Part shown: positions 1 through 31,148 of the stretch, one piece after another | Numbering within the stretch: position 1 is the stretch's first letter | Layout: each line of letters begins with the position of its first letter | Source of the DNA: a candidate division WOR-3 bacterium | GTDB lineage: Bacteria > Hydrothermota > Tepidihabitantia > SM23-42 > JAOAFX01 | Length of the DNA: 42,597 nt | Direction: 5' to 3' | NCBI GenBank assembly: GCA_037444665.1 | Contig: JBBILZ010000019.1 | Coordinates: forward strand, 1 to 42,597 | Notes under the pieces: generated by a model | Database searches by the model: none | Told to the model about the DNA's origin: nothing | Seen by the model: only the letters and a program-made list of their open reading frames with translations | Translations under genes and position numbers: made by a program

Positions 1-121
1 AAAGGAATAAAAAAAATTATAAAGAAGGTTTATGAGTTTGGACCCGGTTGACCAGAAAGGTGCATCACCCTATGCCTATTGTGCCAATAATCCAATAAAA
101 TTTACTGACCCGACGGGCGAG
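1..121 (+). repeat. Rhs-core junction repeat, copy 1 (identical to 5038-5158)
   Basis: By direct comparison 1-121 matches 5038-5158 base for base, including the 3' end of the nucleotidyltransferase gene and the Rhs MSLDP...DPTGE coding segment. Confidence 0.97.
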
Positions 122-778
122 ACTTCAATGGCTGCAGATTGGATTCAGTGGCAGATGGAAGATGATGCAGCATTTTTTGGAACGATGGGTGAAAATGGTC
201 TTGTGCCTTATACGGGCTGGCGCTCAAAGACCTGGTTTTTAGGTTCGTCAGCTGAGTTAGACCCAGATTTCTGGGCACCGGGCTGGGATTGGTCAGCGGG
301 TGCCAATGATTTGCTTAGACAGGTGATGTTTTTATTGAGCTCTGGAATATTTGAATGGGAGATTCTTACCGAGAACGGTTGGCAATTTATTAATATTGGA
401 GAATGGATAAAAGTTAATAATATCCGCATAATAAATGCCAAAATGCCTGGAATATTGGGGTATACTGGATATGGAGAGGCGTTTGGGCATAAGCTGGGAC
501 CCCTTGTAATGCTTATAAATTTATCGTTAATTGCGGAAAAGGGCGGTGGTCTATATGAGGTTGCAGGAACCATACTCCACGAAGCCACCCATTTGCTACA
601 AAGAAGTTTTGGATTTGAGGCTGGAGGTTATAATGAGGGGACTGCAACGCAGTTACTTATGCAACAAGAACGGCAAGCTTACAGTGTTGAAGGATTTTAT
701 TTTGGAAATCTATACACTTCTAATTTTCGTAATGCATGGATACAAGGTGCAATGCTGTGCGGTTTAATACGCCCGTGA
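32..778 (+). CDS. Orphan Rhs C-terminal toxin 1, HExxH zincin-like domain
   Basis: Starts with the Rhs-core tail MSLDP...PYAYCANNPIKFTDPTG; C-terminal region has ILHEATH and a downstream Glu (QERQAY). Confidence 0.85.
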   Translation: MSLDPVDQKGASPYAYCANNPIKFTDPTGETSMAADWIQWQMEDDAAFFGTMGENGLVPYTGWRSKTWFLGSSAELDPDFWAPGWDWSAGANDLLRQVMFLLSSGIFEWEILTENGWQFINIGEWIKVNNIRIINAKMPGILGYTGYGEAFGHKLGPLVMLINLSLIAEKGGGLYEVAGTILHEATHLLQRSFGFEAGGYNEGTATQLLMQQERQAYSVEGFYFGNLYTSNFRNAWIQGAMLCGLIRP

Positions 779-779
779 C

Positions 780-1523
780 ATGGTAGTGAAAAATTGGGTA
801 TTTAAAATGTCTGGTTGTGTAGGGGTGACCTATGGAATTATAAAAAGAAATAAGCAATTTTCTACATTACATTTTTGGGCATGGACGAACATTAGATTGT
901 TTCTACATTTGATTATTATTTCTTGTGTTAGTTATCATAAATTAACGCAAGGCACAATGAATCTAGTTTTTAGTACAGATTCAATGAGTGTGATTAGTAT
1001 GAAACATCTTGAGGCAATGTATATAACAAATGCCGATTTAGATGCCACAACCGATGGACATCTTAACATAATCGCTGGCGATAAATATATTTTCATGTTG
1101 CACGCTATCTATCCTCCGCCTGCCATGCGCATTTTCCCACCTGAAACACTTGTAGACTACCGCTTATTTATTTTCTTGGATTCAATAGGGGTAAATAATT
1201 CGGTGGAATTGAGTCGGACAAAAGCACTATTTTATCATGACGAGATTTGTAACTTCAATTTGACAATAAAGGAAATTGGTTCAATAGTTCTAAAAAAATT
1301 TATTATTTATCGACAGATGAAAGATACAATTTTGGGTTACATATCTTTTAAGGGCGAAGTCTACGATATGAACCCACGAAAATACTATGAATACAAAACC
1401 TCAAGAAAGGTAGAGGGTCAAGTTTGTTTTAAAGCCGTGAAGACAAATTTAAAAAAGATTTCCTCTCAACTAAAAGAGTTCTGGTTGCCCAAAGGATTTT
1501 TGATAGATTTCTTAAAAGAATGA
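780..1523 (+). CDS. Putative immunity protein for toxin 1 (possible lipoprotein; start uncertain)
   Basis: Immediately downstream of toxin 1; hydrophobic stretch ending in Cys (LFLHLIIISC); no recognised family. Confidence 0.55.
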   Translation: MVVKNWVFKMSGCVGVTYGIIKRNKQFSTLHFWAWTNIRLFLHLIIISCVSYHKLTQGTMNLVFSTDSMSVISMKHLEAMYITNADLDATTDGHLNIIAGDKYIFMLHAIYPPPAMRIFPPETLVDYRLFIFLDSIGVNNSVELSRTKALFYHDEICNFNLTIKEIGSIVLKKFIIYRQMKDTILGYISFKGEVYDMNPRKYYEYKTSRKVEGQVCFKAVKTNLKKISSQLKEFWLPKGFLIDFLKE

Positions 1524-1581
1524 TTTTGCAGAAGTGAAAAAGGTCAGTATTTATTTGGAAGCTAAACAAATGGAGGTAATT

Positions 1582-2061
1582 ATGTCAAAAATTAAAAAGC
1601 CATTTTTGTATTTGCTGATAGTGCTTTTACCAGTGTTATGTGCTCAAAAGAGGGTTTGGCAGGGGCAGTATATAACCATCCAGACGAATGAATTTCCTAA
1701 GGAAGATTTCAAGGTTGGTAATTATATTGTTGTTGCCTATACTCCTCAGGAATACAATAAGAAGTCTAAAGTTATTTACCAGTTTGATATTATGGAGAAT
1801 CAGAAGCGCACTCGTATGATTGTATTTCAGGAGTGTTTTCTGTTAATTACAGAAAGGCCAGAGCCAAACAAAATGGATAAGGATAAAGATTATGATTATG
1901 CTTTGATTGAAATTAATCCTGCATATTTCGGCAAATTGAAACATCTATCTGTGGTTAGTGGGACTACTCATAAGCTCTATGAGAAGATGCACAGTTATGA
2001 AGAGATCAAGGAGGAAGTTATTGATTTGATATTGGGCAGAGGATTGATGCCGGAATATTGA
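1582..2061 (+). CDS. Hypothetical exported protein (second immunity candidate)
   Basis: GGAGG at 1572-1576 before ATG 1582; signal-peptide-like MSKIKKPFLYLLIVLLPVLCA. Confidence 0.6.
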   Translation: MSKIKKPFLYLLIVLLPVLCAQKRVWQGQYITIQTNEFPKEDFKVGNYIVVAYTPQEYNKKSKVIYQFDIMENQKRTRMIVFQECFLLITERPEPNKMDKDKDYDYALIEINPAYFGKLKHLSVVSGTTHKLYEKMHSYEEIKEEVIDLILGRGLMPEY

Positions 2062-2175
2062 AGATTAGATAAAACAACACTTTATTTTTGCATTTCACTT
2101 TTGCGGTTAAGTGGAAGGCGATTTTAATTTAGATATTTTAGTGGTTTGATATTGCGATATGTTTGCTATGCTTAA

Positions 2176-2203
2176 TTGACAATTCTTTTTTTATTAATAT
2201 AAT
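2176..2203 (+). promoter_or_regulatory. Sigma70-type promoter for the DUF433/DUF5615 pair
   Basis: TTGACA-16 bp-TATAAT; AGGAG RBS at 2214-2218. Confidence 0.8.
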
Positions 2204-2223
2204 TAACTTATAAAGGAGATTAG

Positions 2224-2445
2224 ATGGAGAGAATAACAGTAGATAATGCAGTGCACTTTGGTCAGCCTTGCATTGCAGGCACAAGAATACCGGTGTATTG
2301 TATTCTTGAACTCATTGAAGCGGGTATTTCTTTTGAAGAAATTATTGAAAAATACTATCCTGGGATTATGATTGAGGACATTAAGGCTTGTATTCAATAT
2401 GCTATGAATATTATTAAAGCCGAAGAAGTGCACATTGCCGAATAA
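2224..2445 (+). CDS. DUF433 family antitoxin
   Basis: Motif HFGQPCIAGTRIPV...ILELIEAG.SFEEII..YP.I..EDIKAC..YA. Confidence 0.9.
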   Translation: MERITVDNAVHFGQPCIAGTRIPVYCILELIEAGISFEEIIEKYYPGIMIEDIKACIQYAMNIIKAEEVHIAE

Positions 2446-2451
2446 CAATAG

Positions 2452-2823
2452 ATGAGATTTTTAATTGACGAAGATGTTTATGAATTAACCATTAAATTTT
2501 TGCGTGGACACGGATATGATGTTGTAAAAGTTGCAGATATTGGCTTACGAGGTAACCCTGATGTAGTTATTTTGAGCTATGCTTTGCAGCACGGTTTAGT
2601 GCTTATTACACGCGATAAAGGATTTGGCTCTTTAGTATTTTTAAGCAAGAAAAAAGAGGCTTGTGTAATTCTGTTGCGATTAACACCTGAGACTCTTGAA
2701 GAAGTTAACAATGAGCTTTTGAAGGTTCTCAAAATTCACAGTGATAAACTATTGCCTGGGTATTTTATAGTTATTGAACCAGGTAAACATCGGGTAAGAA
2801 AAAAGGATGACCAACAGAAATAA
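2452..2823 (+). CDS. DUF5615 family PIN-like toxin
   Basis: MRFLIDEDV...GYDV...D..IL.YA....VLITRDKGFG; follows DUF433. Confidence 0.88.
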   Translation: MRFLIDEDVYELTIKFLRGHGYDVVKVADIGLRGNPDVVILSYALQHGLVLITRDKGFGSLVFLSKKKEACVILLRLTPETLEEVNNELLKVLKIHSDKLLPGYFIVIEPGKHRVRKKDDQQK

Positions 2824-3649
2824 CTCACAGCGTTACTACGACCCACAGATTGGCAGGTTTATGAGTTTGGACCCGGTTGACCAGAAAGGTGCATCACCCT
2901 ATGCCTATTGTGCCAATAATCCAATAGGATTTACTGACCCGACGGGTGAGGTGATGAGTTATTCCCATATTGAAGAGATGTTTCAAGTTTATGGAATGTG
3001 GAAGGCTGGTTTTACGTACTATACTTTTTGGAATTATGATGAGTGGGGTAATTTACTGGGTATCGATTACTATAGCCCCACCGATTTGAACAATCCATAT
3101 TTAGAATTAGGAATAATCCCACCGGCGGTATATTTCGCAATTTCATGGTCTAACAGAATATATGGCGCTTATTCTGACAAGGTTTCTTTTATGCGGTGTG
3201 TCTATGTATTGTCTATAGCAAGCCCGAGGGCGGCTTACTATTTATCAGCATACACACAATGTTCTGTTTTCTTAGGGGATCCTGTTATGGCAACAACGAA
3301 CAGCGCTATAACCTATATGAATGAGGATGGGTCGATTTATGTCCATTTCGGCGAACATACTTCTTTAGGAATGCTGGCGAAGAATATCTTACATGAAGCC
3401 TCACATATTTGGGGATTCCTGAATCCGGAGTTAGATTTAGGCCCAGAATTTATGGAAATGTGGTCAAAAATAGGAGAATCGGGGGTTCTTTTCAGGCGCT
3501 ATTATGATTCCCCTCAGGATCGTTTTGCAATAGATTTAATTCGTGACATTGGACCTCTGTTTCGTTATGGAATATTATGGCCAAACTGGCCAACTCGGCC
3601 AACGGACACTGGGTGGTTCTTGCTATATAGAGAAATATGGCGACCATAA
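2807..3649 (+). CDS. Orphan Rhs C-terminal toxin 2, HExxH zincin-like domain (alternative start 2861)
   Basis: QRYYDPQIGRFMSLDP...YCANNPIGFTDPTG core tail; ILHEASH motif. Confidence 0.85.
   Translation: MTNRNNSQRYYDPQIGRFMSLDPVDQKGASPYAYCANNPIGFTDPTGEVMSYSHIEEMFQVYGMWKAGFTYYTFWNYDEWGNLLGIDYYSPTDLNNPYLELGIIPPAVYFAISWSNRIYGAYSDKVSFMRCVYVLSIASPRAAYYLSAYTQCSVFLGDPVMATTNSAITYMNEDGSIYVHFGEHTSLGMLAKNILHEASHIWGFLNPELDLGPEFMEMWSKIGESGVLFRRYYDSPQDRFAIDLIRDIGPLFRYGILWPNWPTRPTDTGWFLLYREIWRP
2855..3003 (+). repeat. Rhs-core junction repeat, copy 2
   Basis: Matches 5063-5211 with 3 mismatches; identity continues past DPTG into the toxin N-terminus (EVMSYSHIEEMFQVYGMWK). Confidence 0.95.
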
Positions 3650-3734
3650 TACTATAATACTACTTGCACGATGAATCTCAATGTTTATAATAAGTGCAAT
3701 GCACATCAGAATTAAGATTTTGTTAAAGGGTTAT

Positions 3735-4232
3735 ATGGGGATACCGAAGATCGGATTTATATTGCTATCCACGGTCATAATATTCGGTATGTTCCAATGT
3801 TATTATCTTACGACCCCCCAATTAACTAACAAAGATAAGAGTGAACTTGTGCAGATGACTTTGGTTAAAGTTCTTGAAGAGAAAGTAGAGCCGTTCTACT
3901 CTGTGCTGCAGGATACCGGTTGTGTTGTTCTAACCAACTATTCACTGGAAGGAATGAGTTCCATACAATTATTCACCATAGATTTAAAAATACTTGATAA
4001 AAATGCAATGAAAACAAGAGCTGACAGCATCGGTCCTTACAGATGTTTCCATTTTCTTTTTGATATTGTAAATAATGATAATGTGATTGTGATACTGCAC
4101 TTAGTGTGGATCTTACCAGATGAGGAAATTGGAAGTGAATATATAAACCGACCAATGTTGGCAATAAAATTTCATAAGGAGCGAGGTATGTGGAAACCCG
4201 GCGAAATTTTGCATACGGAATCACGCTACTGA
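3735..4232 (+). CDS. Putative immunity protein for toxin 2 (lipoprotein-like; ORF is open from 3681)
   Basis: Directly downstream of toxin 2; MGIPKIGFILLSTVIIFGMFQC resembles a lipoprotein signal. Confidence 0.6.
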   Translation: MGIPKIGFILLSTVIIFGMFQCYYLTTPQLTNKDKSELVQMTLVKVLEEKVEPFYSVLQDTGCVVLTNYSLEGMSSIQLFTIDLKILDKNAMKTRADSIGPYRCFHFLFDIVNNDNVIVILHLVWILPDEEIGSEYINRPMLAIKFHKERGMWKPGEILHTESRY

Positions 4233-4298
4233 ACATTATGAAGCATGGAGCAGAGATGAACTTTTGCCGTTGGCAGCAATTGGTATACTGACCCAATC

Positions 4299-4326
4299 TT
4301 GACTTATCTTTAATTTCTGGTAAAAT
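4299..4326 (+). promoter_or_regulatory. Sigma70-type promoter, probably leaderless
   Basis: TTGACT-16 bp-TAAAAT with TGn extension; ATG 4334 follows after 7 nt with no SD. Confidence 0.7.
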
Positions 4327-4333
4327 TAGCAAG

Positions 4334-4582
4334 ATGAAAAGAGGCATTCGTAAATATCGGACATTTTTGGAAGCAAGGTTGGATATGTATCGGGAGATGT
4401 GGAAAAGAGGATTTCAGGAAAAAAGGGTAGCAAGATTCTTAAAAGAGTTCGCCGATTCCTTAAGAAAGTATAATCATCCAGCAAGCAAAATTCTTTATAA
4501 ACCGGGTCTCTATTTTTTTGAATCATTTGAGCAATCTCAAAGAGACCTGGAAATGCGAATAAAAGAAAATGATAACCCTTGA
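4334..4582 (+). CDS. Small basic hypothetical protein, putative partner of the nucleotidyltransferase
   Basis: 82-aa ORF overlapping the next gene; own promoter; TA-like two-gene layout. Confidence 0.65.
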   Translation: MKRGIRKYRTFLEARLDMYREMWKRGFQEKRVARFLKEFADSLRKYNHPASKILYKPGLYFFESFEQSQRDLEMRIKENDNP

Positions 4583-5072
4583 AAAATTATCATTATTCTG
4601 TGATGTATTAAATAGACATAGTGTCAAGTATATCTTAATTGGTGGTTGTGCGGTTATTTTACATGGATTAGAAAAGCCAACTTACGATATTGATTTTCTT
4701 GTGGAAGATACGGAGGAAAATGTTGCAAAAATAAAAAAAGCATTGCTTTGTTTTTTGCGTGAAAATGAAATAGCAGAGCTTAATGCTAAAATGCTTCGCC
4801 ATTATCAAGTTGTCAGGGTGGGGCTCGGTGGTTATTATGTTGACCTATTAACGAAAGTGGGTGATATTGATTATAAAGTAGCAAGACAGGAGATATATTT
4901 TGAGAAAGTTGGTGGTGTTGAGATTCCTGTGGCTGGTCTGGATACGATGATCGCTTTGAAACAGAGCTATCGGGAAATAGATCAAAAAGATCGGCTTTTT
5001 CTTGAGGGTAAAAAAGAGTATTTAAGGCGGAAAACGAAAAGGAATAAAAAAAATTATAAAGAAGGTTTATGA
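4569..5072 (+). CDS. Minimal nucleotidyltransferase-fold protein (DUF6036-like)
   Basis: YILIGGCAVILHG...TYDIDF (GG and DxD), later VDLL and LIALK...R..D..D-type motifs. Confidence 0.85.
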   Translation: MITLEKLSLFCDVLNRHSVKYILIGGCAVILHGLEKPTYDIDFLVEDTEENVAKIKKALLCFLRENEIAELNAKMLRHYQVVRVGLGGYYVDLLTKVGDIDYKVARQEIYFEKVGGVEIPVAGLDTMIALKQSYREIDQKDRLFLEGKKEYLRRKTKRNKKNYKEGL

Positions 5073-5211
5073 GTTTGGACCCGGTTGACCAGAAAGGTGC
5101 ATCACCCTATGCCTATTGTGCCAATAATCCAATAAAATTTACTGACCCGACGGGCGAGGTGATGAGTTATTCCCATATTGAAGAGATGTTTCAAGTTTAT
5201 GGAATGTGGAA
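5038..5211 (+). repeat. Rhs-core junction repeat, copy 3 (mosaic of copies 1 and 2)
   Basis: 5038-5158 equals 1-121; 5159-5211 continues identically to 2951-3003. Confidence 0.95.
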
Positions 5212-5845
5212 AGAAGGTCAGCCTCGGATTATGGTTGGTTTTGGTAGTGAATATGGATCAATGCAAAGCTACATGGAAGCGAATTCGTGGTTCTATATGG
5301 AGGTCGCCCTCAATGAATACATCAGCCAAATGCGATTTTACTTTGCTAAGCATGATTATTTTAGACAAACATACCAATATGGTTCAACGACAATAGAGAC
5401 CTATATGTATTTTAATCCTATTACTATGTCAGTAATGGTTGGAATGAATCGCTACGACAATCCGGAATATGTAGCTGGTAGTGGCGCAGGACTGGGTTCA
5501 ACCTATACAGTGGCCGATGAAATGAATCTAATGCGAACAGCCTATGTCAATTTTATGGTAGCAAATTATCCAATTCATGGTTCAACAATTGTTCCTGAAT
5601 ATGCTATAAGATATTTAGCCGGTGACCCCAATGTATGGGCTTGTGCTGACTGGTCGTATGAACTTAATGCGATGTTTGGATCAATGAACTTACAATATTG
5701 GCAAACAAAAGTTGTGAATATCTGGAAAGTTCACTCTCTGGTAAGTGCCACCTGTTATGGCGAATGGACACGGTACTTTGATCCTTATTTTATGGCACCA
5801 TTCCTTTATGGTTTTCAAGTTTTTCCACCTTTACCTTATCGATAA
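5069..5845 (+). CDS. Orphan Rhs C-terminal toxin 3, putative papain/transglutaminase-like domain
   Basis: Rhs-core tail, then Cys (WACADWS), His (VHSLV) and Asp (YFDPY) in transglutaminase-like order. Confidence 0.8.
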   Translation: MSLDPVDQKGASPYAYCANNPIKFTDPTGEVMSYSHIEEMFQVYGMWKEGQPRIMVGFGSEYGSMQSYMEANSWFYMEVALNEYISQMRFYFAKHDYFRQTYQYGSTTIETYMYFNPITMSVMVGMNRYDNPEYVAGSGAGLGSTYTVADEMNLMRTAYVNFMVANYPIHGSTIVPEYAIRYLAGDPNVWACADWSYELNAMFGSMNLQYWQTKVVNIWKVHSLVSATCYGEWTRYFDPYFMAPFLYGFQVFPPLPYR

Positions 5846-5867
5846 TTTGAAAGAGGAAAATAGTATT

Positions 5868-6281
5868 ATGAAAAAGTTAGACCCGTTTTCTTTTTTACTC
5901 GTTTCAATATGGAGTATTGGAACATTAATAAAATTGCCTGATCTATTGGAACTCAATAGAGGCCCCGAATTGATTTTGAATATCGCGGCGGTTATGCTCA
6001 TACTAATTATTTTAATAATATGTGCCATTGGAATAAATTACAGAAAATGCTGGGCGCGAACTTTATATCTATACGTCAGCATTATTGTTATATTCTTAAT
6101 TCTTTTTGTTACCATTTATTCCCTACAAAAACAACAGGTTCTGGACGCTACTTTGCTCGGTTATAGTCTTCTTATTTTTTCTCCTTGGATTGGTATTCTC
6201 CTATATGGCATTTACTATTTAAACCGCAAAGACATCCGTGAATCCTTTGGTTTATCAAAGGATAATAAATCCAAAAATTAA
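5868..6281 (+). CDS. Putative membrane immunity protein for toxin 3
   Basis: About four hydrophobic segments; directly downstream of toxin 3; GAGG upstream. Confidence 0.7.
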   Translation: MKKLDPFSFLLVSIWSIGTLIKLPDLLELNRGPELILNIAAVMLILIILIICAIGINYRKCWARTLYLYVSIIVIFLILFVTIYSLQKQQVLDATLLGYSLLIFSPWIGILLYGIYYLNRKDIRESFGLSKDNKSKN

Positions 6282-6353
6282 AAAATAAAATGGAAAACTG
6301 GTGTGGAGACAGGGGTTGACTTTTTGACAGTAAGGCGGTCTTTATTTTAGGCA

Positions 6354-6378
6354 TTTTGCCTATTTGCTTCAGGCAAAA
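6354..6378. terminator. Possible bidirectional terminator hairpin
   Basis: TTTTGCCT-9 nt-AGGCAAAA. Confidence 0.4.
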
Positions 6379-6452
6379 ACTTATAGGTCTTTGGCTTCGA
6401 TATTGGCTTCATTAGATATGTCTATCTTTTAGGCAAACGAAATTCTACACAG

Positions 6453-6480
6453 TTGAATTCCGTAGAAATATATGTATAAT
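6453..6480 (+). promoter_or_regulatory. Sigma70-type promoter upstream of Rhs fragment 4
   Basis: TTGAAT-16 bp-TATAAT. Confidence 0.55.
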
Positions 6481-6552
6481 AGATTATTGATAAGGGTCAT
6501 TTAACGAGGGCGGGCACCCTTGAAAATTCGGGTAGAATACATCAGAGGTAGG

Positions 6553-7569
6553 ATGACAGAAGCAAGAAGCAAGATAAGAAATCGTGAAAGAGCGGTAATA
6601 TCTGATTTCTCTTCTTTACATCCTGGCTTCTATATAAATCATTGCGATGCCCTGGGTAGTCCAAGGAAGATGACGAATGAGTCAGGCACTGTTGTCTGGA
6701 CGGGTGCCTATCAGCCGTTTGGAGAGATGATAACAGGCTCGGGCAATGTGCATGGGTTTACAGGGAAGGAAGTGGATTCAGAGATGGGTTTAAACTATTT
6801 CTGTCAAAGATATTACGACCCACAGCTTGGCAGGTTTATGACCCTTGACCCCTTTGGCGGTTACATTGAGCTCCCCCAAACCCAGATGAGATACGGCTAT
6901 TGTGTGAACAATCCCCTTAAATACATTGACCCGCTGGGGTTGAACCCACCGATGGAGTGGTTGTGGGATGAAAATATAGCGTGGACTTGTTATGATGATA
7001 TATGCATTGGTGTATGGACACCACCTCCTATTCCACCGCTTCATCGTATTCCTGATGCTTCTTCAGATGAAGGATTAATAGGTGCGGATGAAGATGCGTA
7101 TTCAGACCCTTATGGTGGTGGTACTGGTGGTTATCTTGGAGGTCGGAGGAGAAGGAGTGGTTATAATCCTTACGGCGGGGGCGGTCAACCCGGTCATAGT
7201 GGTACTCCTGCACACAATATAGTAATCGGTTTCCAATTTCAAGCGCAGGCTACATTTTTGTGGTGGGGCATGTCATGGGGTCAAACTTACATTATTACGC
7301 CTGCTGAACAGCGTGGCTGGTACTTTTTTATGGAACCAAATAAAGGGTTTGGACTTGGTATCGGTCTTGGACCTATTGTTGCATGGGGTAGTGGTCCATT
7401 AACTGGTGATATGGCAGATTTTTCCGGAGGCGGTGGGCCAATAATTATTTCAATTTTTGATAATGGACTTATGAAATCAATATTCTTTGGATATAACTGG
7501 GGAGTGCCAATCACAGTATCTAGTGGATTAATGACAACAGAAGAAATGGACAATTTAGAATGGCCATAA
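6553..7569 (+). CDS. Rhs repeat-associated core domain fragment with Gly-rich C-terminal toxin 4
   Basis: HCDALGSPR...YQPFGE...FTGKE.DSE.GLNYF.QRYYDPQLGRFMTLDP...YGYCVNNPLKYIDPLG; start uncertain (TTG 6520 or ATG 6553). Confidence 0.9.
   Translation: MTEARSKIRNRERAVISDFSSLHPGFYINHCDALGSPRKMTNESGTVVWTGAYQPFGEMITGSGNVHGFTGKEVDSEMGLNYFCQRYYDPQLGRFMTLDPFGGYIELPQTQMRYGYCVNNPLKYIDPLGLNPPMEWLWDENIAWTCYDDICIGVWTPPPIPPLHRIPDASSDEGLIGADEDAYSDPYGGGTGGYLGGRRRRSGYNPYGGGGQPGHSGTPAHNIVIGFQFQAQATFLWWGMSWGQTYIITPAEQRGWYFFMEPNKGFGLGIGLGPIVAWGSGPLTGDMADFSGGGGPIIISIFDNGLMKSIFFGYNWGVPITVSSGLMTTEEMDNLEWP
6558..6631. repeat. Degenerate heptamer-repeat element
   Basis: Purine-rich arm AGAAGCA AGAAGCA AGATAAGAAATC and pyrimidine-rich arm TCTGATTTCTCTTCT...CTGGCTTCT. 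Confidence 0.55.
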
Positions 7570-7588
7570 TATATTAGAGTAACAAAGG

Positions 7589-8086
7589 GTGAAAAATATG
7601 CAGCTAAACAAAAAGAGTGTATTATTTCTATGTATCCTACTGATAATAAGTGTACTACTGCTAATCTTTTTTCATACCGACAATGGTTTATATCTATTCG
7701 CTGTATTTCTAATACTTTGGTTTTTGCTTATTGTTTTGACTATAAAACCATTAAGTAGATTTCAATACCGAATGATCTTTCAAAAATCACCTACGGAAAA
7801 ACAATTAACGCAATTCATTTTAGGAGGATTTGTATTTACTCCGCTGTTTATCCTCTATGGTTTGTTAAATATTAAATATCCTACTACCCCGTTAAATTAC
7901 TTTTTTAGAACTGTAATTATTGGGTTTCTACTTATTGGAATATATGTGATCTACAAATATATCAAAAAAGAGAAAATTTATATAGTTAAAGGTGAGGAAG
8001 AAAAACCACCATCTGTAGTCCATTCTAAAAAAGTTGCTATGGCAGATAAAGATATACAGCAAGGCCATGCAAATCATTTAGAATGA
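7589..8086 (+). CDS. Putative membrane immunity protein for toxin 4
   Basis: Four hydrophobic segments; 19 bp downstream of toxin 4. Confidence 0.7.
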   Translation: MKNMQLNKKSVLFLCILLIISVLLLIFFHTDNGLYLFAVFLILWFLLIVLTIKPLSRFQYRMIFQKSPTEKQLTQFILGGFVFTPLFILYGLLNIKYPTTPLNYFFRTVIIGFLLIGIYVIYKYIKKEKIYIVKGEEEKPPSVVHSKKVAMADKDIQQGHANHLE

Positions 8087-8204
8087 TAGCATAGTGACAA
8101 AAATAATAAATAAACATCTGGTTCGTATTTTTTTGCACTTTTCTACTGGCAGAAAAAGGTCAGGTGTAATAAAAGTAAAAACTCAGGATAATGGAAAATA
8201 GCTA

Positions 8205-8297
8205 ATGATGAAACGGGATTTAAAAATTTTATTAATAGGTCTTCCTCTGCCTATTGTAATGGGAATACTTATTGCACTTCTATTAAATCTGTTTTAG
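8205..8297 (+). CDS. 30-aa single-TM peptide (not in the ORF track)
   Basis: Own translation MMKRDLKILLIGLPLPIVMGILIALLLNLF; flanked by hairpins. Confidence 0.35.
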   Translation: MMKRDLKILLIGLPLPIVMGILIALLLNLF

Positions 8298-8430
8298 TTT
8301 GCAACATTTTTCTGCCTGCCGTAAAAATGTTGTTTTTTGAATTTGCTGAAGAACTTCAGGTTTATGTTTTTTAGTTTTGACAATATTTAAAGTAATTTAT
8401 TATTGGACTTTTAGGTATTTGAATATGGTG

Positions 8431-8458
8431 TTGACACAGGAAAAAAATTGGCTAAAAT
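8431..8458 (+). promoter_or_regulatory. Sigma70-type promoter for the second DUF433/DUF5615 pair
   Basis: TTGACA-16 bp-TAAAAT; AGGAG at 8471-8475. Confidence 0.75.
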
Positions 8459-8481
8459 TAATTTAATAAAAGGAGATATTT

Positions 8482-8763
8482 ATAGCACATACAGAAGCAA
8501 AGATTGAGCAAGATTATGTCATAAAGAATCCGGTTATTCATGGTGGTGAACCTGTAGTTAAGGGAACGCGGTTTCCGGTTCGTTCAATTGTTATTTACAT
8601 TTTAAAAGAAGGAATGTTGCCGGAGGAATTGGTTAAAGAGTTTCCCCAGTTGACACTTTCGGCAGTCTACGGTGCACTTGCTTACTATTATGACCATAAA
8701 GAGGAGATTGATTCTTTGATTAACGAGCAGAAAGAGTCTGAATGGAAGGACAAAGTCAAATAA
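8482..8763 (+). CDS. DUF433 family antitoxin with ATA at the expected start (possible pseudogene)
   Basis: Own translation ...NPVIHGGEPVVKGTRFPVRSIV...GMLPEELVKEFPQLTLSAVYGALAYYYDHKEEID; 94-codon frame begins with ATA 6 nt after the RBS. Confidence 0.85.
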   Translation: MAHTEAKIEQDYVIKNPVIHGGEPVVKGTRFPVRSIVIYILKEGMLPEELVKEFPQLTLSAVYGALAYYYDHKEEIDSLINEQKESEWKDKVK

Positions 8764-9094
8764 AAATTTATCTTGATGAAGATGTTCGGTTGCTTCTTGC
8801 TAAAGTATTAAGGGAAAGGGGATACGATGTAATAAGTTGTGTTGAAGAGGGGTTAATCGGGTTGAGTGATGAGCAACAATTATTACAGGCAATAAGTAAA
8901 GAGAGAGCGATATTATCGCACAATATAAGAGACTTTGTTCATCTTCATAAAAATATTATCAAAGTCATTTTGGTATAATTTTAAGCGAGCAGGTAGATTT
9001 TAAGATTCTTTTAAGAAGAACGCTACGATTCTTATCAAAATCAGCGCCTGGGGATGTGAAGGGGCAGGTGGTTTGGTTAGGTAATTACGGATAA
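8742..9094 (+). pseudogene. DUF5615 PIN-like toxin, frameshifted
   Basis: N-terminus KIYLDEDV...SDEQQL...ILSHNIRDF; adding one A to the A5 run at 8949-8953 restores ...HKKYYQSHFGIILSEQ...GQVVWLGNYG*. Confidence 0.85.
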
Positions 9095-9231
9095 TTTAGC
9101 GAACTGTATGCAGAAGAAAAAACAGTCAGAAGGCGATGATGGGTAAACCGACAGGATTTTTCTGCCTGGCAAGAAAGTGTTGCAATAAAAGTTTTTCGAG
9201 TGTGCTGTATTTTGCAGAATTTAAATTTAAG

Positions 9232-10608
9232 TTAATGATTGCGATGAACAAGATAGTGGTGATAAAATGAATAGACATCAGGATAGAGATAGAATGAGCC
9301 AAAGATGAGAGTGATTAAATTGTCCATATTTTTTGCACTGATATATTCCAGTGCTCGTTTGATTGAGCCGGCAATTAAGAGATTTTTTTGATATTTTTTT
9401 GCCCGCTTATAAATTTCTAAGGGTTCCATTGCTCTGGGATTTTCAATTCTAACAAGAAGAATTTGCTTTGCTTCGGGGAAGATATATTTTATTGCATAAT
9501 TTATGTCTTTATCCCTGCTACAACCAAAAACAATATAGAGTTCTTTTTGTTTTTTTATATCTGAGCCAATAAAAAAATTTTTCAAATTATTATTTAATGC
9601 ACAGAAAGAATCTTCATTATGCGCAACATCATATATGACCAGAGGTCTTTGTGAGATGATTTCAAACCTGCCTGATAATTTAACCTGTGTTAATCCTTTT
9701 TTTATTGCAGAAATAGAAATCGGGAAGCCTCTATTTTTCAATTCGTATAATACAGCAAGCGCAATCTTTAAATTTTCAAGTTGATGTGCACCCACAAGGG
9801 GCAGAAATATGTCGAACTTTCCCAATGGACCTTTGATGTGCATTTTAGTTCCTGAAAGCTGAATTCTTTTAATTTTTATCCCCTGCAGTTCATCAGCATA
9901 TATAATTTTATTTTTTCGCTCCCGGGCAATTCTTTTTAAAAGTTTTTCTACACTTGGATGCTGGTGGATGGTAATAAAAAATCCCCCTGTTTCCCCCTTT
10001 ATAAAAGAGGGATTGAGGGGGATTGCTTCCCTGATAATTCCTGCCTTTTCATAGGCAATCTGTGATAATCTGTTCCCAAGCAGGTTCATATGGTCATAAC
10101 CAATTCTGGTAATTACTGGAATTCGGGCATCAACAACATTTGTCGCATCAAGCCTGCCACCAAGACCGACCTCAAGGACTGCAAAGTCCACCTGGTTTTT
10201 TGCAAAGTGCATAAAGGCGATTGCGGTTAAAACTTCAAAGAATGTGCGTGCACCAATGCGGGTTTTAAAATTGATATGGGGTCTGATTAATCTGATATAT
10301 TTCTCCATCTGTTTTTTGGTGAGCTCTTTATTGTTAATCTTTATTCTCTCGGTGATTCGTAAAAGATGGGGTGAGGTGAAGAGCCCAACTTTGTAGCCAT
10401 TTGCAATCAAACAGGAGTTGATGATTGTGGCAGTAGAACCCTTTCCTTTTGTACCCGCAATTAAAATAACATTCTTTAATTTTTTTTGCGGTGCGCCAAT
10501 CTTTTCAAGAAATAATTTATATGCGGTGAGGTCATACTGATAACCAGGAATTTTTTCGTAGTTAATAAGTGAGTTTAGAAATTCTTCAGGTTGCAATATT
10601 TTTTCCAT
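9232..10608 (-). CDS. folC: Folylpolyglutamate synthase / dihydrofolate synthase
   Basis: IAGTKGKGST, GLFTSPHL, FFEVLT, EVGLGGRLDATN, DVAHN, FGSFYL. Confidence 0.95.
   Translation of the reverse strand: MEKILQPEEFLNSLINYEKIPGYQYDLTAYKLFLEKIGAPQKKLKNVILIAGTKGKGSTATIINSCLIANGYKVGLFTSPHLLRITERIKINNKELTKKQMEKYIRLIRPHINFKTRIGARTFFEVLTAIAFMHFAKNQVDFAVLEVGLGGRLDATNVVDARIPVITRIGYDHMNLLGNRLSQIAYEKAGIIREAIPLNPSFIKGETGGFFITIHQHPSVEKLLKRIARERKNKIIYADELQGIKIKRIQLSGTKMHIKGPLGKFDIFLPLVGAHQLENLKIALAVLYELKNRGFPISISAIKKGLTQVKLSGRFEIISQRPLVIYDVAHNEDSFCALNNNLKNFFIGSDIKKQKELYIVFGCSRDKDINYAIKYIFPEAKQILLVRIENPRAMEPLEIYKRAKKYQKNLLIAGSIKRALEYISAKNMDNLITLIFGSFYLYPDVYSFYHHYLVHRNH
9980..10024. repeat. 45-bp palindromic element inserted in-frame in folC
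   Basis: AATCCCCCT...AGGGGGATT termini and an inner CCC/GGG hairpin; encodes IPLNPSFIKGETGGF. Confidence 0.8.
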
Positions 10609-26575: not shown

Positions 26576-27129
26576 GATACAGACTGATAAAGGATGAGAT
26601 TGCTTATACTGGCGAACAATTGAGAAGTAATTTTGCTTATACTACTTTTGGCATTGTGGGTGATTCAATAGTTGCTTTTTGTGGTCCCTGTGATGTAAAA
26701 CTAAAGGAGATGGTAGATATTGAAGATTTGAAAGCCGGTAAGGCAATCTATTCTGAGTATATGCTTCATTTCATTGTGGAGCATTATGATACAGATATTG
26801 AGAAGATTATTCTCAAACAACTGATACTTACCTGCATTGTGCGTGATGCAATAAATGAAATCAAAGGAAAACTCATTGTAAAAAGGGTCAATTCAGACTT
26901 ATACGAGGATGATGCGAAAATTACTATTTCTGTAGCAACAGTTTCGCCCCTTTCTTCGCTCATCCATTTTGGTGTAAACATTACTTCAACAAATACGCCA
27001 GTGAAGACCAAAGGTCTGAAAGACTATGATATTGAACCTTATGAATTTGCCAATATGATAATGGACCGTTATACAAAGGAGATAGAAAAGATAAATAATG
27101 TCAGATGCAAGGTAAGATGGGTGCAATGA
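26572..27129 (+). CDS. DUF366 family protein
   Basis: Y.GEQL....AY..FG..GDSIVAF.G.CDV...MVDIED, MLHFIVEH, SVAT, IHFGVN. Confidence 0.85.
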   Translation: MRYRLIKDEIAYTGEQLRSNFAYTTFGIVGDSIVAFCGPCDVKLKEMVDIEDLKAGKAIYSEYMLHFIVEHYDTDIEKIILKQLILTCIVRDAINEIKGKLIVKRVNSDLYEDDAKITISVATVSPLSSLIHFGVNITSTNTPVKTKGLKDYDIEPYEFANMIMDRYTKEIEKINNVRCKVRWVQ

Positions 27130-30971: not shown

Positions 30972-31111
30972 GGTTAGCCATTCTAAAAAATGGAATTAAA
31001 TCAATGTAGTTGCCCAATTTCCCGAAGGGACTCTCGTCCCATCGGGACGGAGCATTGGGCTCTTTCTGGTGCTTGATAAATCAAGCAACTACAATTTCAG
31101 GATGGCTAAAC
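30972..31111. repeat. REPIN-like GTAG REP doublet with outer inverted arms and an insertion in one loop
   Basis: GGTTAGCCATTCT...AGGATGGCTAAAC arms; TGTAGTTGCCCAATTT[33 bp]ATTGGGC and GCTTGATAAATCAAGCAACTACA. Confidence 0.75.
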
Positions 31112-31148
31112 TGTTACGGCAATAAGAATTGGTGAAAGGAGGTTGCAA

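Follow-up and report, generated by a model that had tools for sequence, protein, structure and literature searches.

The window analysed here is a 42,597-nt stretch of DNA from a candidate division WOR-3 bacterium, the whole of contig JBBILZ010000019.1 (C19) in a metagenome-assembled genome (MAG) of 120 contigs and 2.54 Mb (GCA_037444665.1, hereafter G000, the source genome), rated 99.5% complete and 2.7% contaminated. Related genomes are labelled G002 and so on, X1-X4 are sequencing runs, and the runs with this DNA are labelled as subsurface and sediment metagenomes. The window carries an array of orphan Rhs cassettes, each with a truncated Rhs core tail, a C-terminal toxin tip (CT) and putative immunity genes (I), interleaved with two-gene modules of toxin-antitoxin (TA) type. 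Arrays of orphan toxin and immunity genes are regarded as silent reserves dependent on a parent gene. No parent gene was found in this genome, where the orphan cassettes have classical TA operons, with strong predicted promoters, fused to their heads, and the arrangement recurs with different TA families across the phylum. We propose that autonomous TA operons act as promoter-bearing, hard-to-lose cassettes heading a parentless orphan Rhs CT/immunity array, a reading that we regard as evenly balanced between right and wrong. Its structural part, comprising the parentless array, the promoter-bearing TA operons fused to cassette heads, the modularity of the TA units and tail-to-tail recombination, is well supported. 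For its functional part, we infer from sequence features that the TA cassettes would be addictive and that their promoters would also transcribe the downstream orphan immunity and CT genes.

Contig C19 starts at base 1 because a repeat, R (Table 1), was collapsed during assembly. Bases 1-31 form the 3' end of a nucleotidyltransferase (NTase)-like gene and are identical to 5038-5068, and contig C88 opens with 121 nt that match 4321-4441 exactly in reverse complement. The simplest path runs from reverse-complemented C88 through R (4321-5158) into C19 from 122 to 4320, through R again and onward from 5159. This join is supported by the depth of the R unitig, which in run X1 is 32.8 vs 14-19 in the flanks, i.e. 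about twofold, and by a 3844-nt contig of run X3, from another study and of ~95% identity, that runs from 4321 to 5037 and then back to base 1. It is further supported by the loose end of the X3 contig before 4321, the 30 letters shown there being the C88 flank. The order on the X3 contig is C88-type flank, R, CT1 through DUF5615, CT4. Strains were compared by means of Logan contigs and unitigs, not reads. Unitigs of X1 cover 92-2864, 2974-4350, 4321-5092, 5355-6653 and 6912-9100 with at most one difference each; X2 and X4, at low depth, yielded fragments only, with no usable long X4 contig. The array so reconstructed measures ~12.6 kb and lies on one strand, with five orphan Rhs-CT/immunity cassettes and five two-gene TA-like modules in the order [85-aa/DUF2283]-CT0-I-I-[sORF/NTase]-CT1-I-I-[DUF433/DUF5615]-CT2-I-[sORF/NTase]-CT3-I-CT4-I-[decayed DUF433/DUF5615], where sORF denotes a small open reading frame (ORF). 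It is bounded by a conserved 305-aa gene on the left and a folC-like gene on the right. C88 contributes a promoter, the 85-aa ORF, the DUF2283 gene (E 1e-16), the fifth orphan CT0 (319 aa, full TIGR03696 match) and then two membrane ORFs; beyond the array end on C88 lie the 305-aa membrane protein gene and a radical-SAM/SPASM gene.

All five cassettes, four in the window and one on C88, open with a TIGR03696 Rhs-core remnant ending in PxxxxDPxG. In a six-frame search all are above the cut-off; taken as ORFs from their ATG, CT1 and CT3 score just under it. The tail DNA is repeated (2855-3003 vs 5063-5211, 98%), and self comparison indicates that the CTs diverge beyond the shared tail. Each of several CTs is conserved together with its downstream gene: CT3 with I3 in G004, CT4 with I4 in G002, and CT1 with I1a/I1b in G004, G007 and G025. 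Such pairs are putative toxin/immunity pairs. CT3 is 70% identical over 262 aa to the C-terminus of a 954-aa rhs gene in G004, and since I3 matches the gene that follows it, the tips belong to a pool in use in the genus. CT4 is 68% identical to an orphan in G002, and CT1 has homologues in G025 (51%), G004 and G007. For CT1 the ESM Atlas gave a sub-threshold lead to Peptidase_M91 (0.88), to be taken as a lead only, and for CT3 it gave nothing. No family match was obtained for I1a or I2 in Pfam, NCBIfam and PADLOC scans; among the array proteins NCBIfam returned Rhs core matches only, and PADLOC gave 0 matches for 20 array proteins, so that no known defence system was recognised. Both CT1 and CT3 start at the conserved Met of GRFMS; a specially evolved Met start was considered and rejected, as GRFM is also found in the rhs genes of G019 and G004. 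Regarding I4, a parentless array in G025 headed by HicB/HicA ends in four tandem paralogues, 34-55% identical to it (G025:C31, L015 10771-12390). In G024 and G038 (L009, L010, L019), the gene after the Rhs tip encodes a PD40/beta-propeller protein of 345-388 aa and not a small immunity protein. A short hydrophobic ORF of ~30 aa can also be seen in the printed sequence at 8204-8296, between I4 and the boundary hairpin.

Four of the five cassettes are headed by a TA-like module. Two small adjacent or overlapping genes of known TA families are present in the DUF433/DUF5615 pair, which occurs twice, once decayed. The other modules correspond to this description in part, as the NTase lies below the Pfam cut-off (E ~3e-3) and the 85-aa partner of DUF2283 is without a family. 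The NTase has 15 homologues, some named as AbiEii/AbiGii-family proteins or carrying PF19502, PF10706 or PF08843. The intact DUF5615 gene also matches PIN_10 and Mut7-C and shares 70% identity with its counterpart in the G004 array. Protection of one DUF433/DUF5615 pair by the other is unlikely because their proteins are only 29% (DUF433) and 43% identical. Two of the five modules, those of sORF/NTase type, are identical copies forming an 838-bp direct repeat, and could therefore supply antitoxin for each other, while the repeat should favour deletion.

Consensus sigma-70 motif matches scoring 10-12/12 were found 10-50 nt upstream of all five modules. Within the 11.8 kb of assembled array there are four sites of at least 11/12 (2176-2203, 8431-8458, C88 143-116 and C88 2800-2773), all on the coding strand and directly upstream of TA modules. 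At 2176-2203, the hexamers, ribosome-binding site and start are conserved in G004. R starts exactly at the -10 box, and both of its differing upstream flanks supply a TTGAC -35 box at 16-nt spacing; for the other R copy its own flank supplies TTGACA, raising the score to 11/12. The genome holds 242 perfect TTGACA-N16-18-TATAAT sites, with ~5 expected by chance on a rough estimate, and this type of promoter therefore appears to be in use. Array TA modules elsewhere have promoter scores of 11/12 in G004, G007, G002, G221 and G219 and 10/12 in G025. Moreover, the toxin gene meets the orphan CT directly: the DUF5615 stop is at 2823 and the CT2 ATG at 2807, NTase and CT3 share ATGA, and in G221 a DUF3368 gene and the orphan overlap by 4 nt. 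No terminator was predicted between any TA module and its CT.

Searches of all 120 contigs with the RHS_repeat and YD_repeat profiles gave nothing significant (best E 0.17 and 0.49), and all five TIGR03696 matches of the genome fall in this array. No rhs was found in the neighbouring DNA of C88 and of C27, which is colinear with that of G008, the nearest relative, although the MAG may lack such a gene. A parent gene just past the end of C88 was rejected, as the neighbour is C27 and its colinearity with G008 leaves no gap for rhs. Relatives carry rhs genes with open frames of 1400-1950 aa, several of them followed by orphan tails. Full-length genes in G002 and G005 (L003, L004, L016) start with DUF6531 and adjoin a GspD-like secretin gene, with a PilM-like gene in G002; these neighbours hint at a delivery route for the Rhs proteins of the genus. 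G002 also holds a 1123-aa rhs remnant (G002:C23, L069 1166-4537) that ends a few residues past the GRF core motif without a toxin tip, 4.7 kb upstream of the locus homologous to the G000 array site.

An earlier note on this DNA, written from the sequence alone, had given the gene order within the window on the + strand, and ORF calls, Pfam and NCBIfam place every feature as it described. Its observation of near-identical Rhs-core DNA at cassette starts was likewise borne out, by the 98% match given above and the identity of 1-121 with 5038-5158. The NTase it named is backed by homologues and a G..DxD motif, its Pfam matches being below cut-off; the final DUF433/DUF5615 pair it listed is present in decayed form, with an ATA start and a 78-aa truncated DUF5615. 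Extension to the left, from which it expected the parent rhs and more units, delivered a fifth cassette and TA module on C88 and no parent rhs.

Table 1. Features of the orphan Rhs array and its right flank in the window.
Feature	Position	Strand	Remarks
End of upstream R copy	1..121	+	NTase 3' end (1-31) and Rhs tail; 100% identical to 5038-5158
Orphan Rhs-CT1	32..778	+	TIGR03696 positions 47-75; starts at the Met of the conserved core motif GRFMS; HExxH motif
Putative immunity gene I1a	780..1523	+	247 aa; weak G025 and G007 homologues, located after CT1-like genes
Putative immunity or lipoprotein-like gene I1b	1534..2061	+	175 aa; 72%/67% identical to same-place genes in G004/G007 arrays
Predicted promoter of DUF433/DUF5615 operon	2176..2203	+	TTGACA-16-TATAAT, 12/12
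DUF433 antitoxin-like gene	2224..2445	+	73 aa; PF04255 E 2.7e-21; 82% identical to G004 array copy
DUF5615 PIN-like (Mut7-C/COG4634 type) toxin-like gene	2452..2823	+	123 aa; PF18480 E 1.1e-21
Orphan Rhs-CT2	2807..3649	+	TIGR03696 positions 32-75, E 3e-15; HExxH motif; start overlaps DUF5615 stop by 17 nt
Putative immunity gene I2	3681..4232	+	183-aa ORF
Predicted promoter of sORF/NTase operon	4299..4326	+	TTGACT-16-TAAAAT with TG (extended -10), 10/12
Repeat R	4321..5158	+	838 bp: -10 box, 82-aa ORF, NTase gene, Rhs tail; 2 genomic copies, assembled once
82-aa ORF, putative antitoxin upstream of NTase	4334..4582	+	Pair conserved in G022
Small NTase-fold gene, AbiEii/DUF6036-like	4569..5072	+	167 aa; weak PF19502 and PF09970 matches; G..DxD motif
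Orphan Rhs-CT3	5069..5845	+	TIGR03696 positions 47-75; ATG overlaps NTase stop (ATGA)
Putative membrane immunity gene I3	5868..6281	+	Likely start 5868, longest ORF from 5745; 85% identical to gene after G004 rhs
Terminator-like hairpin	6348..6362	+	After I3
Weaker promoter-like site	6453..6480	+	10/12; before CT4, the sole cassette without a TA module upstream
Orphan Rhs-CT4	6520..7569	+	Longest core remnant; PF03527 E 8e-10; full-length TIGR03696 E 3e-20; Gly-rich C-terminal domain
Putative membrane immunity gene I4	7589..8086	+	165 aa; 62% identical to gene after G002 orphan
Boundary element with hairpin 8299-8332	8298..8389	+	~90 nt; between I4 and decayed DUF433
Predicted promoter of decayed DUF433/DUF5615 pair	8431..8458	+	11/12
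Second DUF433 gene	8482..8763	+	ATA at start-codon place, 7 nt after AAAGGAG; PF04255 six-frame E 1.1e-15
Truncated second DUF5615 gene	8742..8978	+	78 aa, model positions 2-74 of 110
Right flank, conserved 458-aa gene, FolC/Mur-ligase-like by eye	9232..10608	-	Found in 12/12 genus genomes

Comparison between strains and relatives singles out one conserved unit, made up of TA module, promoter and Rhs tail, whose neighbours vary on both sides. Positions 2196-2952, comprising -10 box, DUF433, DUF5615 and tail, align with the G004 array at 69% across the TA-tail junction. There the module stands after an I3-like gene and before a CT1-like tip; its G000 neighbours are I1b upstream and CT2 downstream, and in the X3 strain CT4 comes after it. 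Downstream of the CT1-type cassette one finds DUF433/DUF5615 in G000, a 72-aa ORF and a PIN gene in G007, and no module in G004. The 85-aa/DUF2283 pair is located at the array start in G000 and at the array end in G002, while sORF/NTase recurs in G022 with 74% nucleotide identity and the same 14-nt overlap in a genome with no Rhs tail. Run X4 has different sequence upstream of 2171 and 4299. On the X3 contig, 2849 is joined to 6827 through 15 nt of shared sequence within tails. Relative to G000, this strain is without CT2-I2-sORF/NTase-CT3-I3, a differing block of 3977 bp that may reflect either deletion or gain, and the identical twin of the TA module inside the block remains.

The array occupies a conserved intergenic hot spot. 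Homologues of the 305-aa and folC-like genes neighbour each other across the genus, being 20-54 nt apart in 4/11 relatives (G004, G005, G010, G011) and 1.4-2.8 kb apart, with other genes between them, in 5/11. In G008, they lie on two contig ends, with a CT1-like fragment, a different 236-aa gene and only the 3' part of the truncated DUF5615 gene, kept at 98%, before folC; in G007 this query did not retrieve the 305-aa gene. The boundary element before the decayed DUF433 gene has a 76% copy at the left array edge, after the 305-aa gene (C88 2817-2909, with a perfect 17-nt stem), and a 34-nt core copy on contig C2 of G000 (27044-27077). The X1 and X3 contigs break at it, and it could be a repetitive extragenic palindromic (REP)-like element or a terminator marking the insertion borders. 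A separate repeat of ~115 nt (G008 L070 4605-4720) is present in more than 25 places in G000, including 31002-31123 of the window, at 82-94% identity, and looks like a dispersed family of REP type or of miniature inverted-repeat transposable elements.

TA genes are denser near Rhs tails than elsewhere. For 41 genomes (G000 and 40 relatives) and five TA markers, 162 matches were obtained (DUF5615 30, DUF2283 13, PIN 27, HicA 48, NTase-like 44). Nine of these lie within 5 kb of a TIGR03696 match against 0.42 expected, the territory being ~0.26% of the DNA, which is an enrichment of ~20-fold. With G000 left out, the figures are 5/148 against 0.37; in G000 itself, 4/14 matches fall in the array, which is 0.47% of the genome. 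Across the phylum, Rhs tails (E <= 1e-10) occur in 43/242 genomes, and 60 loci from other genomes were fetched around them. All 229 called ORFs were scanned in L001-L021, which include C88 of G000, and 181/283 ORFs of up to 230 aa in L022-L061. A tail was counted as TA-headed when a Pfam TA-family gene on the same strand ended at most 500 nt upstream; the tally, made by hand, leaves out tails in open frames longer than 700 aa and tails cut by a contig end. It gave ~11/55 TA-headed orphan tails with at least six TA families in eight genomes: four in G000 and one each in G004 (DUF433/DUF5615), G007 (PIN), G010 (DUF3368), G025 (HicB/HicA), G219 (PIN), G221 (UPF0175/DUF3368, 4-nt overlap) and G223 (DUF433 alone). 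Array ends in G002, G221 and G231, and possibly in G211 and G016, carry further TA genes. By hand reading, all but one of ~20 TA-family genes in or beside arrays are co-oriented with the cassettes. Three arrays contain transposase genes of IS200 (insertion sequence) type.

A mechanism can be proposed on this basis. Homologous recombination, acting on the tails of 100-150 nt and on duplicated TA modules, would build and reshuffle the array. The TA operons would be independent selfish cassettes, which may persist as deletions removing a unique pair would be counter-selected, and their promoters may keep the orphan immunity genes and short cytoplasmic CT proteins transcribed without a parent rhs promoter. 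If the promoters do drive the cassettes and the TA pairs do hinder loss, this would explain the usefulness of orphan immunity against the Rhs toxins of neighbours, and the solution of integrons, in which promoter-bearing TA cassettes police the array, would have arisen independently in a system recombining by homology only. A bolder extension holds that TA-headed orphans are a general integrase-free counterpart of integrons in the phylum. In it, promoter-antitoxin-toxin-tail units would combine a promoter, an addiction element and a recombination handle, the library would be expressed, hard to delete and easily reshuffled, and the short CTs would be extra cytoplasmic TA-like toxins; we consider this extension doubtful.

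Several points weigh against the proposal. The tests of enrichment overstate its significance because the genomes are related and not independent samples, and 153/162 TA markers are remote from Rhs tails. Variable islands of every kind are known to accumulate TA genes, and the enrichment was set against the whole-genome share of DNA. About 44/55 orphan tails have no recognisable TA gene upstream, a count in which Pfam-negative small ORFs may conceal further TA genes, and arrays right behind an intact rhs (G019, G016, G027, G030, G063, G216) are mostly without TA genes. Co-transcription from TA module to cassette is deduced from consensus motifs only, a look for RNA runs containing the locus having yielded none; strong promoters and co-orientation are, in addition, inherent features of TA operons that require no selection on behalf of the cassettes. 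Furthermore, neither the 82-aa nor the 85-aa partner ORF has a family match in Pfam, and the NTase matches are sub-cut-off.

In a neutral explanation, Rhs leftovers and selfish TA cassettes co-accumulate in a recombination-tolerant hot spot, with adjacency, co-orientation and read-through as by-products. This is a serious rival, which we nevertheless judge to be rather improbable. The site is indeed a hot spot in the genus, with variable flank spacing and a different array end in G008; TA modules are found elsewhere without Rhs, as with the distant markers and in G022, and other TA genes of G000 cluster without Rhs, e.g. PIN and HicA on C2. The IS200-type transposase genes of some arrays fit it as well. 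It accounts less readily for TA genes, from at least six families and eight genomes, that sit immediately at the tail and in many cases overlap the orphan ORF, for the nearly uniform co-orientation with the cassettes and for a TA-tail junction conserved between G000 and G004. That last junction, together with the X1 unitigs and the X3 contig spanning NTase to CT1 through DUF5615 to a tail, leaves an artefact of assembly or binning, with the alternation as a metagenome chimera at repeats, scarcely credible, even for a MAG of 120 contigs with 60 contig-end overlaps, a window that starts in a collapsed repeat and a check that rests on Logan contigs and not reads.

The mechanism put forward in the earlier note was that CT, immunity and TA genes recombine together and that the TA pairs are kept for the stability they give to a silent library of toxins, from which a full-length rhs is loaded by recombination. 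Overall, it is partly supported. Its expectation of denser TA genes near Rhs tails was confirmed by the survey, the exact 121-nt contig overlaps and the contig from the other study answered its concern over misassembly, and strains were found to differ by the X3 block, which is bounded by Rhs tails. In its favour are also the TA modules at 4/5 cassette heads, and the presence of CT3 and its immunity gene on the G004 rhs, so that tips are in use in the genus. The X3 block (2849 to 6827) is without a missing unique TA family because the NTase module inside it leaves its identical twin behind, and addiction blocking deletion has precedents both for rhs repeats (PMC7043789) and for integrons (PMC13108822). 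Two of its elements were not supported, however. A fixed unit of CT, immunity and TA is contradicted by neighbours that differ on both sides of the TA module in G000, G004, G007, X3 and X4. Shuffling onto a full-length rhs is undermined by the lack of any such gene, or of an RHS_repeat or YD shell, in a 99.5%-complete assembly or beside the locus, where the DNA is colinear with that of G008, and there is therefore nothing in this genome to shuffle cassettes onto. Moreover, the two identical modules form an 838-bp deletion substrate, one pair is decayed and is cut down further in G008, and the toxin gene faces the tail, so that the toxin is the first part lost when a deletion comes in from that side. 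We thus think this mechanism unlikely and prefer the reading of TA operons as promoter-bearing cassettes.

Regarding known systems, the array resembles the orphan rhs-CT/rhsI arrays that arise by C-terminal displacement, e.g. rhs-main/rhs-orphan of Salmonella Typhimurium (PMC7043789), in its truncated core tails with PxxxxDPxG, variable tips and small downstream genes, in the near-identical tail DNA at cassette starts, in strain differences bounded by tails and in the occurrence of the same tip on the rhs gene of a relative (CT3 in G004). It differs from them in that no full-length rhs is present in the genome or beside the array, in that an unrelated TA-like operon, with a predicted promoter of its own, heads 4/5 cassettes, and in its host, an uncultured bacterium of Fibrobacteres-Chlorobi-Bacteroidetes (FCB) type; for one of its genes the best named homologue is from candidate division WOR-3, no more than a taxonomic hint. 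Pairs of DUF433 (COG2442) with PIN-like COG4634/Mut7-C proteins are predicted TA systems, e.g. VapBC45 (Makarova 2009, PMC2701414; Matelska 2017, PMC5499597). The pair at 2224-2823 agrees with them in gene order, sizes, 7-nt spacing and Pfam families, and differs in the fusion of an rhs tail to the 3' end of its toxin-like gene. The literature searched, in which most subscription journals were absent, contained no account of Rhs orphan cassettes alternating with TA operons, which is no proof of absence.

Rhs CT/I pairs themselves function as type II TA modules when expressed from promoters inside rhs (Starsta et al. 2020, PMC7043789), and such internal expression is stated there to prevent deletion between rhs repeats; that loss of CT/I blocks deletion is thus already in print for Rhs CT/I themselves. 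The orphan CT ORFs here are alike in having their own start codon and lying in an apparently promoted unit with the immunity gene. With that start codon and an apparently constitutively promoted unit, the orphan CTs could therefore be made inside the cell. In those modules the promoter is inside rhs, 89 nt before the motif, whereas here the predicted promoters are those of separate, classical TA operons joined to the tail from upstream. A further parallel concerns sedentary chromosomal integrons, whose TA cassettes have promoters of their own and are lethal to the cell when excised (Richard et al. 2024, PMC13108822) and in which promoter cassettes bring about transcription of otherwise silent cassettes downstream (Blanco et al. 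2024, PMC11014356). An integron itself was rejected, as there are no attC-like or recurrent inverted repeats at cassette borders and no recombinase or integrase family among the scanned array and flank ORFs, no genome-wide integrase search having been made. Unlike in integrons, recombination here appears to be run by homology, at rhs tails and duplicated TA modules, and the cassettes are toxin/immunity pairs. In common with them, mostly promoterless cassettes are interspersed with promoter-bearing TA operons, TA genes are enriched, and it is proposed that excision is selected against and that downstream cassettes become transcribed. By this analogy, the array may be an integrase-free functional counterpart of the promoter-bearing TA cassettes of sedentary chromosomal integrons.

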